Assembly: GCA_016839945.1 (NCBI GenBank) | Contig: JAEOTE010000065.1 | Coordinates: 1-36,114, forward strand | DNA: 36,114 nt | Source: Candidatus Heimdallarchaeota archaeon | Lineage (GTDB): Archaea > Asgardarchaeota > Heimdallarchaeia > Heimdallarchaeales > Heimdallarchaeaceae | Reading direction: 5' to 3' | Shown: positions 1,165 to 35,907 of the stretch, one piece after another | Layout: each line of letters starts with the position of its first letter | How positions within the stretch are numbered: the stretch's first letter is position 1 | Notes under the pieces: generated by a model | Databases searched by the model: none | What the model was told of the DNA's origin: nothing | Seen by the model: only the letters and a program-made list of their open reading frames with translations | Position numbers and translations under genes: made by a program

Positions 1165-3156
1165 TCAGAAATAAATTAAATCAATTTTTTCCGCAAAATC
1201 AAGAAAATCAAATATGCTTTTCCAATCGGGAATCTTCCAATTAACTAAGCTCATATATGATATTATGTCATATATTGTTTTTTCATTGTTGATTAGATTA
1301 AACAACTCAAGGATATTTCCACTATAGCTTTGCATTGACGCTTTAACAAAATTCTTCATCCTTCCAAGTTTCTCTTCAGAAAATTGTAGATCTTCTTCGA
1401 ATTTCTTATCCTCACTCATTAATTTGAAGATATCTTGTGTGTTGAGTGGCCCTCTCAACTTTCTTCTTGGTATCTTATCTAATATCTCCTTGGTTTTTTC
1501 ACTTAATTCCTGTTTTTCAATAGGTGGAAGTATCGATTCTAAAGTTTCTTTAGTTGACGTTACATCGTTTTCAAGTATTTTCAGTGTTTTGTTGTCTAAT
1601 TCTTGGAACGTATTAATTATTGAATCCAATATTTGATTCTCAAATTGAATAAAACATTTTATGGAATTGTGTATTAGCATGTTTTTTATTACTTTATTTT
1701 CTGTTTCTAATTTTTCTTGAATGTCTTTCTCTTTCTTAATCATCTGTATTAGTTTTCCTTTTCTTTTATGATATCCCATGATGTAATCATTAAGAATCTG
1801 TGTAGAATACTGATTTTCGTATGCTGCAGTAATAGTTGTCATTGTTGTTGTAACTCCCACTCTTTTCATTGTAGTTGGATCTACTTTCTCTATTGTGTCT
1901 AAATTGGTATGATGGAAGGTGTCAGGATGTCCAAACATCACTGAGGGGATTCTTACAGGATCATCATTAAACAAAATATGGTCAGATCCTCCTGAGAATG
2001 GATTTATCCTATAGTTCCAAGCAAATTGCCACCCTCCTTGTTCTATAGCTTGATTGTTATCCTTTACATTATCAATAACCATAGATATAATATCATTAAG
2101 GTACGAAGGTGTTGAAATACTGGATTGACTAAAAGTGAATGGGTGTCCAACAAGAGCAGGATGCTCGCCACACATATCTAAGTTGATACAGAATAAAGGT
2201 TTGAATGTTTCTTCTTTCATTCTTTCCATTATCCAAGGGATAGTACCATGAAATTCAGGAACCCAAAGGAATCTAATTGTACGCTCAGGTGGAAGTATCT
2301 TTTTCTTCTCAATGAGTATTTTTATGGTTCTATATACTTCAAATAAAAGAGCACTTCCAGATGCATTGTCATTAGCTGAAGGAGCTGGATGACATATATG
2401 AGCTATTAAGATAATCTCTTCAGAGGATTTCTTTGTACCTTGAATTTTAGTAGATAAGACATGCATTTTTCCTTCATAAATATCCGCATCTATTTTTCCA
2501 TGAACCATTACTTTTTTTCCATCTTTCATGAAATTGAGTAATTCTAGAGCTTGTTTTCTAGATATTGAAAAACCGAAAGTTGATTTCTTTAGATTCTCTG
2601 CATTGGGCCACAAACCTACATATTGAATCATTTGTAAATATCCTTGGGCTCTCTGTTCTGATGGATAAGCTATTATTCCTGCAACATTGAATTCCGCTAA
2701 TCTTTCAAAAATTTCACGTGGCTTTCCTGAGGTTAAAACTATTTTTCCATCAAGATTTTTTCCCTTAATATCTTCCAATTTCCCCTTTCCTATATGAATA
2801 ACTTCAGTTTCTATATCAACTGATTTTGAGTGTGTACAAATACTCTCCGGAACTTCAGAATATTGGCATAAAATTTTCTGTGAAGGTTCAAGTAAAATTA
2901 GTTCTCCGTCCTTAATATCCCAAGATAATGGGGCATTCCATTCATAGTACCTTTTAGTCCCATCAGCAATATATTCATGAATTTCTGAATCTTTATCCCC
3001 TATTTTTTTCAATTCTTCATTGATAACTTCAACAGATGTAAGAAACTCTTTGCTTGCTTGAATTCTATGATATTGAGATAAGATACCAGTTAAACGTTTT
3101 GCACGTTCTCCTGACAATTCTCTAACGATTTCTAAAAGAAGGTTTTCAGTGCTCAT
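1165..3156 (-). CDS. DUF4910-like M28 family aminopeptidase with PA domain and C-terminal wHTH-like region
   Basis: Motifs HRIQAS, AHICHPAPSANDNASG, WVPEFHG, INLDMCG, GGSDH, FHHTNLDT; PA-domain-like segment GKIVLT...AGII. Confidence 0.8.
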   Translation of the reverse strand: MSTENLLLEIVRELSGERAKRLTGILSQYHRIQASKEFLTSVEVINEELKKIGDKDSEIHEYIADGTKRYYEWNAPLSWDIKDGELILLEPSQKILCQYSEVPESICTHSKSVDIETEVIHIGKGKLEDIKGKNLDGKIVLTSGKPREIFERLAEFNVAGIIAYPSEQRAQGYLQMIQYVGLWPNAENLKKSTFGFSISRKQALELLNFMKDGKKVMVHGKIDADIYEGKMHVLSTKIQGTKKSSEEIILIAHICHPAPSANDNASGSALLFEVYRTIKILIEKKKILPPERTIRFLWVPEFHGTIPWIMERMKEETFKPLFCINLDMCGEHPALVGHPFTFSQSSISTPSYLNDIISMVIDNVKDNNQAIEQGGWQFAWNYRINPFSGGSDHILFNDDPVRIPSVMFGHPDTFHHTNLDTIEKVDPTTMKRVGVTTTMTTITAAYENQYSTQILNDYIMGYHKRKGKLIQMIKKEKDIQEKLETENKVIKNMLIHNSIKCFIQFENQILDSIINTFQELDNKTLKILENDVTSTKETLESILPPIEKQELSEKTKEILDKIPRRKLRGPLNTQDIFKLMSEDKKFEEDLQFSEEKLGRMKNFVKASMQSYSGNILELFNLINNEKTIYDIISYMSLVNWKIPDWKSIFDFLDFAEKIDLIYF

Positions 3157-32970: not shown

Positions 32971-34188
32971 GTGAAATCTTTACTTGAACCTATAGAATAT
33001 ATCAGTACTAATTTCGGACCTAGAATTGCTGGATCAGATGCTGATTATAAAACAATAGATTATATAGAAAAACAATTTCTCTCATTTACACCAAATGTAA
33101 TGACAGAAGAATTCAATGTTGTTGGTAGGTCTCTTCAGTTTCTGATTCAATTTCTTGTTTGGGGATATTTTGTATCTACGTTATGCTATTTCTTTTATGC
33201 ACCTCTGGTACCAGTTCTAACCATCATAAAGCTTCTAATTTTTTATTTAGCAAGATTTAAAGATCGCAATCTTGTTAATTTGTTTGTAAAAAAGGCAAAA
33301 ACAAAGAACATAATAGCTATATTTGAGCCTACAGTTGAAAAAAAGAAATTAGTTATATTCTCTGCACATCATGATTCTGCATTCTACATGCCATTATTTG
33401 AGAAGAAAGTAAAAGAAGTAACAATAATTCAGAATAGCGCAATTGGCGGTATGATACTACTCTTAATATCTGGAATTTGGAAAGCTATTTCTTATTTTGT
33501 CCCTGCTGCTGGTATTTTAAGACTTTTTGATTATTCTTTGGGTACTCTAACAGTATCATGGTTCCTTCTACCTGATATTCTTTTTCTTATTTCTCTCGGT
33601 GGTTTAGGATTCGCTTTTTATTTTCTAAAGAATATGGTAACAAAAACCCCTGTGGTTGGAGCAAATGATAATTTGTCCTCAATAGCTGTATTATTTTCTC
33701 TAGGAGAATATTTGAAGGAAAATCCTCCTCAAAATCTAGAGATACGTTTAATCTCATTTGGTGGAGAAGAACCTGGAATGGTAGGAAGTACTTTCTATGT
33801 TAAGAATAATTTAGGAGAACTCAAAGAAGCTATAAACATAAACTTTGAAAATCTGGGGAGTGGAAAATTAGGCGTTATTGAGAAAGAGAAAGATAACAAT
33901 ATCAAACATGATATAGAACTAGTTAGATTTTTACAGAATATAGCAAATAAGAACGGTTTTGAGCTTCCATCTAAAAAAATTCACTATGGCAATACAGATG
34001 CAGGAAGTTTCTCAAAAAAGAATATTATTGCAACAACAGTTTTTTGTTATAACAAAGAGGATATTTTTGATTTATGGCATTCAACAGATGATATAGTAGA
34101 CAATATAGATGAAAATATTCTAGGAGATGCTTTTGAATTTTCATTAAAAATTATTGAGGAAATCGAAAAAGAGAACTTAAAGAAGTAA
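32971..34188 (+). CDS. Membrane-embedded M28 family metallopeptidase
   Basis: GPRIAGS, NIIA, SAHHDS, GANDNLS, GGEEPG, NFENLG, TDAG, WHSTDD, interrupted by about 4 TM helices. Confidence 0.88.
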   Translation: MKSLLEPIEYISTNFGPRIAGSDADYKTIDYIEKQFLSFTPNVMTEEFNVVGRSLQFLIQFLVWGYFVSTLCYFFYAPLVPVLTIIKLLIFYLARFKDRNLVNLFVKKAKTKNIIAIFEPTVEKKKLVIFSAHHDSAFYMPLFEKKVKEVTIIQNSAIGGMILLLISGIWKAISYFVPAAGILRLFDYSLGTLTVSWFLLPDILFLISLGGLGFAFYFLKNMVTKTPVVGANDNLSSIAVLFSLGEYLKENPPQNLEIRLISFGGEEPGMVGSTFYVKNNLGELKEAININFENLGSGKLGVIEKEKDNNIKHDIELVRFLQNIANKNGFELPSKKIHYGNTDAGSFSKKNIIATTVFCYNKEDIFDLWHSTDDIVDNIDENILGDAFEFSLKIIEEIEKENLKK

Positions 34189-34209
34189 TAGATATTTCGA
34201 AAAAAATAA

Positions 34210-34320
34210 TGGTAGCGCCTGGTGGACTTGAACCACCGATCTTCGGGTTATGAGCCCGACGGGTTTTCCATGCTTAGGGATCATGTGGAGAACCATCCAC
34301 ATAATTTACCCCAAGGCGCT
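34210..34320 (-). tRNA. Initiator tRNA-Met (CAU) with D-loop intron and encoded CCA
   Basis: Acceptor stem AGCGCCT/AGGCGCT with A1:U72, anticodon arm TCGGG-CTCATAA-CCCGA with three G:C pairs, T arm GGTGG-TTCAAGT-CCACC, 3' ACCA; 111 nt including a 33-nt insert. Confidence 0.95.
34274..34306 (-). other. tRNA intron, 33 nt, predicted position 14/15
   Basis: GGGG/CCCT central helix, 3-nt bulges TAA and AAG, 10-bp intron stem ATTATGTGGA/TCCACATGAT; removal restores the D-arm GGGT-AGCATGGAAA-ACCC. Confidence 0.85.
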
Positions 34321-34491
34321 AATCACTCATTCCCTTTACACATTCTTAATCTTTTAAACCTTTGTTTCTGTCATACGTTTTTTGCGGTGAAAGTTCTTCT
34401 AGTTTTATAAGAATGCAATAAAGCAAATTTAGAATGTCAAAAACAGTTTTATGGAAAACTTCATAACTTTTTCCACAAACTCTAGTAATAA

Positions 34492-35304: not shown

Positions 35305-35352
35305 AAAATAAGTAGAGAAAAATTAATGTGCCCCTCTTCTTTTATAATGATA

Positions 35353-35907
35353 ATGAAAGAATTTTCAGGTATACTAATTTCAAGTGCAAGAACCTTGGAA
35401 CGAAATTCCTCAAGTGAAATGTTCTACTTGCTATCAGAGATACTAGATTATGAAAACGTCGATGTAAAACCTGTTATAGATATCTCTGGATTATCTATAG
35501 CAATTTTCTCTGAAAATCCAATTTTAACATTAGAGAAGATTAAAGCTGAAATTGAGAAAGATAATTCGGTTTTACAGTACTCACTTAAACTTGTACCTAT
35601 TCAATATAGAACAAACTCTTCAATTGAAGAGATGGAAGAAGTCATGGTAATTTTTAATGAACAAATAGGAGAGGACGATACTTGGAGAATCACCCTCCGA
35701 AGAAGACATTCTCAATTATCTAGGGATGAGATAATTCACTCTTTAGCTGCAATTATGACAAATGGTAGTGTAAGGCTAGAAGATCCTGATTATTACATAA
35801 TTGTTGAAATCTTGGGAAAATGGTCCTATTTATCCCTTTCTCCAATATCAGAGATATCTGTTTCACATTACATTTCTGATCAAAAAAAAGATGAGTTTAC
35901 TTTTTGA
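35353..35907 (+). CDS. THUMP domain RNA-binding protein (Tan1-like)
   Basis: LKLVPIQ, TWRITLRRRHS.LSRDEII..LA, VRLEDPDYYIIVEILG; start probably ATG 35353. Confidence 0.88.
   Translation: MKEFSGILISSARTLERNSSSEMFYLLSEILDYENVDVKPVIDISGLSIAIFSENPILTLEKIKAEIEKDNSVLQYSLKLVPIQYRTNSSIEEMEEVMVIFNEQIGEDDTWRITLRRRHSQLSRDEIIHSLAAIMTNGSVRLEDPDYYIIVEILGKWSYLSLSPISEISVSHYISDQKKDEFTF

Follow-up and report, generated by a model that had tools for sequence, protein, structure and literature searches.

The window analyzed here, a 36,114-nt stretch of DNA from a Heimdallarchaeia (Asgard) MAG, very probably carries a functional initiator tRNA-Met gene, likely the only one in its genome, that is matured by EndA/RtcB splicing of an intron located between tRNA positions 14 and 15. 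The evidence comes from the anatomy of the gene, from its conservation and covariation among congeneric species, from the exact junction found in the DNA of a relative that lacks the intron, and from enzyme genes present in the same genome. The whole gene, including the intron and an encoded CCA, occupies positions 34210-34320 of the minus strand (111 nt). Exon 1 (34307-34320, minus strand, 14 nt) corresponds to tRNA positions 1-14 and consists of the 5′ acceptor strand, U8, G9, the 5′ D-stem strand and A14. It is followed by the 33-nt intron (34274-34306, minus strand) and by exon 2 (34210-34273, minus strand, 64 nt with the encoded CCA), which comprises positions 15-76, from G15 to the CCA end. 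Read in order, the sequence thus gives a 7-nt acceptor strand, U8, G9, GGGU, A14, the insert, G15 onward, and A73 followed by CCA.

Archaeal and eukaryal initiator tRNAs are marked by a terminal A1:U72 pair, and by a CAU anticodon together with three G:C pairs in the anticodon stem. In the sequence, the A at 34320 forms the terminal pair with the U at 34214, and the anticodon CAU lies at 34252-34250 on the minus strand. The anticodon stem, UCGGG/CCCGA, contains three consecutive G:C pairs, G29-G31:C39-C41, which can be read from the sequence and are drawn by ARAGORN for the spliced form. A preliminary description of this DNA had proposed an initiator tRNA-Met with a 33-nt insert in the D-loop, and this identification holds, with the gene on the minus strand. 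In-silico excision of the 33 nt lets ARAGORN recognize a 78-nt tRNA-Met(cat), which has the D stem GGGU/ACCC, G18G19 and C48. This spliced form is a normal cloverleaf with U8, A14 and G15:C48, and the call reproduces the earlier prediction that cutting after the second base of each bulge would yield a 78-nt tRNA with A14, G15, G18G19 and a G15:C48 pair. R1, a covariance model that spans exon 1, the intron and the part of exon 2 reaching to the anticodon, gives the gene a score of 96 bits.

The unspliced gene is poorly visible to standard tRNA finders, as had been anticipated. ARAGORN reports no tRNA in the whole window, and none at the locus when run in intron mode on the whole genome; given the unspliced gene by itself, it returns “nothing found”. 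The Rfam tRNA model produces a single hit in the window, at 34282-34213, with a score of 30 bits (cut-off 29). This hit is mis-registered, with the 3′ end of the insert, the CCCU stretch, taken for the acceptor strand. A 62-aa plus-strand open reading frame at 34222-34410 overlaps the tRNA gene and its promoter and is almost certainly spurious. The G+C content of the window is 31-37%. A gene for an M28-family peptidase (32971-34188, plus strand), whose closest relatives are on Heimdallarchaeota contigs, stops 22 nt short of the tRNA gene's 3′ end, on the opposite strand, and this neighborhood is kept, with the same intron-containing tRNA, on two Heimdallarchaeota MAG contigs. About 1 kb from the tRNA gene lies a gene for a small THUMP-domain protein (35326-35907, plus strand). 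Elsewhere in the genome, a tRNA-Ile(GAU) gene (C74:275-383, minus strand) contains another non-canonical intron, an insert of ~31 nt inside the D-arm, for which ARAGORN reports the wrong intron position.

The insert and the flanking exon bases form a splicing motif of the relaxed type. The 5′ strand of the central helix H is G9-G12 (34309-34312, minus strand), which pairs with 34276-34279. This 3′ strand, CCCU, corresponds to intron nucleotides 28-31 and mimics the 3′ strand of the D stem; after splicing, G9-G12 are G9 plus the 5′ strand of the D stem. In this gene, helix H has three G-C pairs and one G-U pair. The inner hairpin h′ (34280-34305, minus strand) has 10 contiguous pairs (34305-34296 with 34289-34280) closed by a 6-nt loop, and is part of the minimum free energy (MFE) fold. 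Between H and h′, the 5′ bulge UA/A (34306-34308, minus strand), made up of U13, A14 and the first A of the intron, provides three unpaired bases in every fold. The 3′ site, AA/G15 (34273-34275, minus strand), is invariant in the intron alignment (columns 46-48) and is of the loop, or relaxed, type, being followed by unpaired bases that form a loop and not a closed bulge. No outer exon-exon helix h is possible, because U8 faces C16; U7/G7 faces A17/G17, and there is no conserved pairing. The absence of the outer helix means that the intron cannot be filed as a strict hBHBh′ motif and instead takes the relaxed HBh′, or bulge-helix-loop, form, for which helix H, one 3-nt bulge, h′ and splice sites 4 bp apart on opposite strands are all present. 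The bulge-helix-bulge-like elements proposed earlier, namely the GGGG/CCCU helix, the UAA and AAG bulges and the 10-bp stem, were all recovered, and the outer helix that had been called poor is absent.

Folding of the whole precursor gives −45.8 kcal/mol (z = −3.9 relative to shuffles), and this fold contains the helix, the bulge and the hairpin. In the MFE fold, the two A's of the 3′ site are additionally paired to U7 and U8, an arrangement that would eliminate the 3′ bulge. Pairing of this kind needs an unfolded acceptor stem and is impossible in congeners with G7. Shuffling the insert produced four H pairs with an adjacent stem of at least six pairs in 58 of 200,000 cases; the observed numbers are 4 and 10. 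The splicing motif is beyond chance. Other classes of element were considered for the insert and rejected: a strict bulge-helix-bulge (BHB) motif with an outer helix is ruled out by the folds and by the alignment, which has no conserved outer pairing; group I, group II or any other self-splicing intron is ruled out for an insert of only 33 nt that forms a simple hairpin; and a box C/D guide function is ruled out on size.

Cutting after the second base of each three-base site places the junction at 14/15. Since there is an A at both ends, a cut at 13/14 would yield an identical mature sequence, and it is only the bulge rule that picks 14/15. Applied to the second intron found in congeners, this rule also yields the 37/38 junction, which argues against the shifted register. 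Moreover, splicing at 13/14 would require helix H to form between U8-G11 and UCCC, with a U-C mismatch. A related proposal is that cleavage occurs on a transient strict BHB, with an outer helix of C5-G15 and G4-C16, before the acceptor folds. Folds of the 5′ part do pair bases 2-5 with 15-17a in several congeners, but this alternative outer helix lacks covariation and competes with the acceptor stem. There is a small chance that one or the other of these routes is the one used, and splicing at 14/15 on the relaxed motif is the preferred reading.

Among 25 species representatives of the genus, the orthologous gene is detectable in 22. The 14/15 intron is present in 13 of these 22 species and absent, with a precise join, in eight. 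It is the sole intron in four genomes (the present genome, G022, G018 and G017) and is accompanied by a 37/38 intron in nine; eight genomes have the 37/38 intron only, and one (G009) combines a 37/38 intron with a related hairpin intron ~8 nt downstream in the D-loop. In the alignment of the 13 introns at 14/15, mean column identity is 88%. Across the 12 distinct orthologous sequences, 96% of cells pair in the proposed structure, and pairing falls to 37-57% when partners are slid by one to three columns. All four pairs of helix H are kept in 12 of 12 distinct sequences, with only G-C to G-U changes. The h′ stem has 9-10 pairs, four of which show changes on both sides (compensatory) across congeners. 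The bulge, the 4-bp helix and the AA/G site are invariant while the hairpin sequence drifts.

This pattern bears on whether the insert is removed at all. An insert retained in the mature tRNA as an extra hairpin of an enlarged D-loop would be in keeping with the relaxed 3′ site seen here, and a 2026 census noted that some D-arm insertions of Asgard archaea that lack a canonical motif “may not be introns at all” (bioRxiv 10.64898/2026.10.13.758758). However, the insert splits A14 from G15 and sequesters G10-G12, such that the D stem, U8:A14 and G15:C48 could not form. An invariant bulge, helix and AA/G site combined with a drifting hairpin fits an endonuclease substrate and not a structural expansion; in sister species, the loss of the insert is exact and accompanied by no further change. 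Retention is therefore very unlikely, and removal of the insert by splicing is favored.

The sister species also supply the junction itself. G003 (L011), one of the two closest relatives as judged by RtcB (92% identity), has identical exons and no D-loop insert; its DNA reads GGGGTA-GCATGG, exactly the junction that the preliminary description had predicted for the spliced RNA. Similarly, the D-loop intron is the sole difference between the gene of G011 and those of G019 and G013, with identical exons and an identical 37/38 intron. Precise deletions of this sort are what loss via a spliced RNA copy would produce. On a tree of RtcB, the state of the D-loop requires at least six changes and that of the 37/38 site at least four, counts that are rough given a single-gene tree that is only partly resolved; even the well-supported clades by themselves call for about four separate losses of the intron in the D-loop. 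No other copy of the intron was found in the genome under study, and the 15-nt hairpin core of the congeners' introns has exact matches only in initiator tRNA genes. Copying of the intron from or to other tRNA genes was considered and rejected: of the 19 one-mismatch matches, the seven inspected are coding-like and without tRNA hallmarks.

One congener departs from this pattern. The orthologous initiator locus of G009 (G009:C10, ~1184-1311, minus strand; L028/L103) has the same promoter as that of its sister species, G019. Its D-loop intron lies ~8 nt downstream, near 20a/21; the core of its hairpin is the 15-mer of the 14/15 introns of G005 and G012, and a G-G mismatch interrupts its central helix, GUGG/CGAC. 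In the sister species, the D-loop is free of introns and the 37/38 intron is a different one. The G009 intron looks like a case of relocation or turnover.

The genome assembly (3.0 Mb, 186 contigs) is 88% complete, and a single initiator locus was found in it by each of three approaches: R1, the Rfam tRNA model, and a BLAST search with the in-silico spliced gene as query. The possibility of a second, intron-less initiator gene had been raised in the preliminary description; none was found in the 88%-complete assembly by BLAST, with either the spliced gene or exon 2 as query, by Rfam or by R1. Two further tRNAs with a CAU anticodon are encoded in the genome; both have G1:C72 and are of the elongator or Ile2 types. 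Intron-bearing congeners likewise have one gene each, including two genomes that are 91-92% complete. The initiator gene is thus probably single-copy, with room for a second gene in the remaining 12% of the genome. Two tandem initiator-like CAU tRNA sequences were found on a 4-kb contig of G013 (L039; G013:C2:1183-1791). They have the three anticodon-stem G:C pairs and no encoded CCA, and G013 also has a normal initiator gene; the tandem sequences could be contamination or mobile-element tRNAs.

The gene is flanked by the BRE/TATA promoter and T-tract terminator expected of an archaeal transcription unit. A purine-rich BRE-like stretch and a TATA box, TTTAAAAG (34351-34364, minus strand), lie 31-44 nt upstream of position 1; all 22 orthologous loci have a purine-rich stretch and a box of the TTTAAAAG type, at a shared distance of 28-41 nt upstream. 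A T-rich tract directly after the encoded CCA (34200-34209, minus strand), read from the sequence, is the likely site of transcription termination; T-tracts follow the CCA in all 22 loci.

These observations can be set against the suggestion that the gene is a pseudogene or disabled copy, with a working initiator gene in the unassembled 12% of the genome. The incompleteness of the assembly, spread over 186 contigs, leaves space for such a gene, and the Rfam model gives the unspliced gene only 30 bits. Nevertheless, the exons match those of congeners exactly or almost exactly, with all initiator identity elements intact, and the promoter is conserved in 22 species. Compensatory substitutions in the intron stem indicate selection on the fold of the precursor, and in 13 species the intron-bearing form is the only copy detected. 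A disabled copy is thus highly improbable, and the data argue strongly for a functional gene.

The genome encodes the enzymes that splicing at this site would call for. Two 183-aa homologues of the splicing endonuclease EndA are present. The first, on contig C55, matches the α subunit of Aeropyrum pernix EndA (3P1Z chain B) over its full length, including the crenarchaea-specific loop, with an E value of 1.7e-37, and aligns to the C-terminal catalytic repeat of two-repeat models. Within the loop, the alignment to 3P1Z chain B is gap-free apart from one residue; a lysine aligns with K44, R46 is replaced by Gln, and the Tyr/His/Lys triad is aligned. For the second homologue, the alignment is to the structural (N-terminal) repeat of two-repeat models and, weakly, to β-subunit models. 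By sequence, then, α and β are encoded by separate genes, and the enzyme is predicted to be an α2β2 EndA with a crenarchaeal-type loop (CSL/L1). In the second homologue (C9:4989-5249; L041:1444-1995, minus strand), the catalytic triad of Methanocaldococcus jannaschii EndA is matched by Tyr, His and Lys, and this protein may not be a purely structural β subunit. The loop and its K44 lysine have been shown in vitro to confer cleavage of D-loop and bulge-helix-loop introns (PMC3241643), and Asgard archaea have been reported to possess an α2β2 EndA carrying this loop (PMC5829648). The preliminary description had held that a non-canonical site with a relaxed motif needs a broad-specificity endonuclease; the genome encodes a candidate of this type, with separate α and β genes and the loop lysine in α.

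The ligase RtcB is present (547 bits), as is ArcTGT/TgtA (452 bits, cut-off 350); the score of an ArcS-like protein falls slightly short of its cut-off. Exon 2 begins with G15, the site of archaeosine, and with ArcTGT encoded by the genome, the earlier statement that splicing takes place next to the archaeosine site is reasonable. In six relatives (G021, G041, G008, G046, G045 and G012; L073 and L075-L079), an insert of ~500 aa splits RtcB after about residue 90, with the whole remaining one open frame of ~1000 aa. The size of the insert fits an intein; the RtcB of the present genome is without it.

Taken with the gene structure, these components lead us to infer a course of transcription, cleavage, ligation and modification. 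Transcription from the BRE/TATA promoter would produce a precursor with the 33-nt intron between A14 and G15. In this precursor, the CCCU of the intron, rather than the 3′ strand of the D stem, would be the pairing partner of G9-G12, and the helix, the 3-nt bulge and the 10-bp hairpin would together present a relaxed HBh′, or bulge-helix-loop, substrate. The predicted α2β2 EndA would cut after the second base of each site, UA/A and AA/G, with the loop lysine of the α subunit binding the substrate. RtcB would then join the exons and probably circularize the intron. The D stem could form at this point, with G15 open to ArcTGT. Translation initiation in this organism would accordingly be expected to depend on splicing.

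Outside the genus, R1 was run on 83 genomes of the class. Full-length, intron-containing matches were found only in the 13 intron-bearing species of the genus, and elsewhere in the class the matches have the intron deleted. A sample of 151 genomes was used for the phylum. In this sample, two initiator genes from another, distant Asgard family (G152:C62, L110, 1501-1621; G112:C352, L111, 163-283) have a G+C-rich 29-nt insert exactly at 14/15, with the same UA/A and AA/G sites, plus a 16-nt intron at 37/38. A D-loop insert at or near 14/15 also occurs in a single genome of a further family and in four Asgard genomes of 1.3-1.4 Mb (L113-L116). In two of these four (L115 and L116), the full genes are 226-228 nt long and have several inserts, one of them close to the 3′ acceptor strand; in the other two (L113 and L114), the same D-loop insert is seen in the R1 alignment only. 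Between this genus and the other Asgard lineages, only the bases constrained by the motif are shared.

The 14/15 site is thus not unique to this genus, and the intron is less unusual than the preliminary description had suggested: D-arm introns are documented in Asgard archaea, and the same site is occupied in other Asgard initiator tRNAs. A distant family shares both the site and the bulges, losses within the genus are repeated and precise, and the hairpin of G009 is shifted. For these reasons, it has been proposed here, as a tentative and rather doubtful idea, that introns may have occupied position 14/15 of the initiator repeatedly, or from ancient times, across the Asgard archaea and may still be mobile there.

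Introns in the D-arm of Asgard tRNA genes were described by Valentin-Alvarado et al. (2024), as cited in a 2026 preprint census of Asgard tRNA genes (bioRxiv 10.64898/2026.10.13.758758). According to the census, tRNAscan-SE misses ~30% of intervening sequences, half of the missed ones being in the D-arm, and the missed inserts lie at splicing-motif boundaries and have been gained repeatedly (bioRxiv 10.64898/2026.10.13.758758). The census centers on Freyrarchaeaceae, Jordiarchaeaceae and Atabeyarchaeaceae, places Heimdallarchaeia with the lineages that have fewer interruptions and are relatively intron-poor, and names neither the initiator tRNA nor position 14/15 in its text (bioRxiv 10.64898/2026.10.13.758758). 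The intron described here resembles the D-arm introns of the census in being within 20-35 nt, in being missed by annotators, in lying at motif boundaries, and in its repeated gain or loss among close relatives. It differs in its relaxed motif and in the scope of its documentation, which covers each orthologous gene detected in a whole genus.

For Crenarchaeota, it is well established that non-canonical BHB introns occur and depend on a broad-specificity EndA (PMC4090602). The sites listed in that review are 20/21, 22/23, 25/26 and others, and 14/15 is not in the list (PMC4090602). A close parallel is the D-loop intron of A. pernix pre-tRNA-Thr2, which likewise lies in the D-loop, has a 4-bp helix and 3-nt bulges, and is cut after the second bulge base (PMC3241643; PMC4090602). 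Both systems have two types of EndA subunit with a conserved loop lysine, here predicted from the genes. In contrast to the A. pernix intron, the one described here is from another phylum, lies at 14/15 and interrupts an initiator tRNA. The preliminary description had drawn a comparison with Thermoproteales; its taxonomic frame needs correction, as the host is a Heimdallarchaeia MAG. A permuted tRNA-iMet gene has been described in Thermofilum pendens (PMC3218864, as cited in PMC4090602). It provides another example of an essential, usually single-copy initiator tRNA that needs the splicing endonuclease to mature; the gene described here differs in being unpermuted, with one intron. This kind of intron has already been reported for Asgard archaea, and the gene reveals no new mechanism.

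The practical consequence of these findings is for annotation. For this genome and at least 12 sister species, automatic annotation would report the initiator tRNA as absent or mis-split, an error that the gene model corrects. Along with the corrected gene model, the main by-products of the analysis are an intron polymorphism with four states within one genus and the apparently relocated intron of G009. The genus offers all four combinations of the two introns in one orthologous gene; these combinations provide an unusually clean comparative proof of the splice junction and a data set for the study of tRNA intron gain and loss in archaea. If the 14/15 site is recurrent or ancient and its introns mobile, the genus would be a natural system in which to follow the entry of BHB introns into tRNA genes, their movement inside them and their loss, and could show whether an intron abutting G15 times the formation of archaeosine on the initiator. 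Asgard archaea are the closest prokaryotic relatives of eukaryotes, and in this lineage an essential, single-copy tRNA is proposed to depend on a splicing endonuclease that acts on a relaxed motif.
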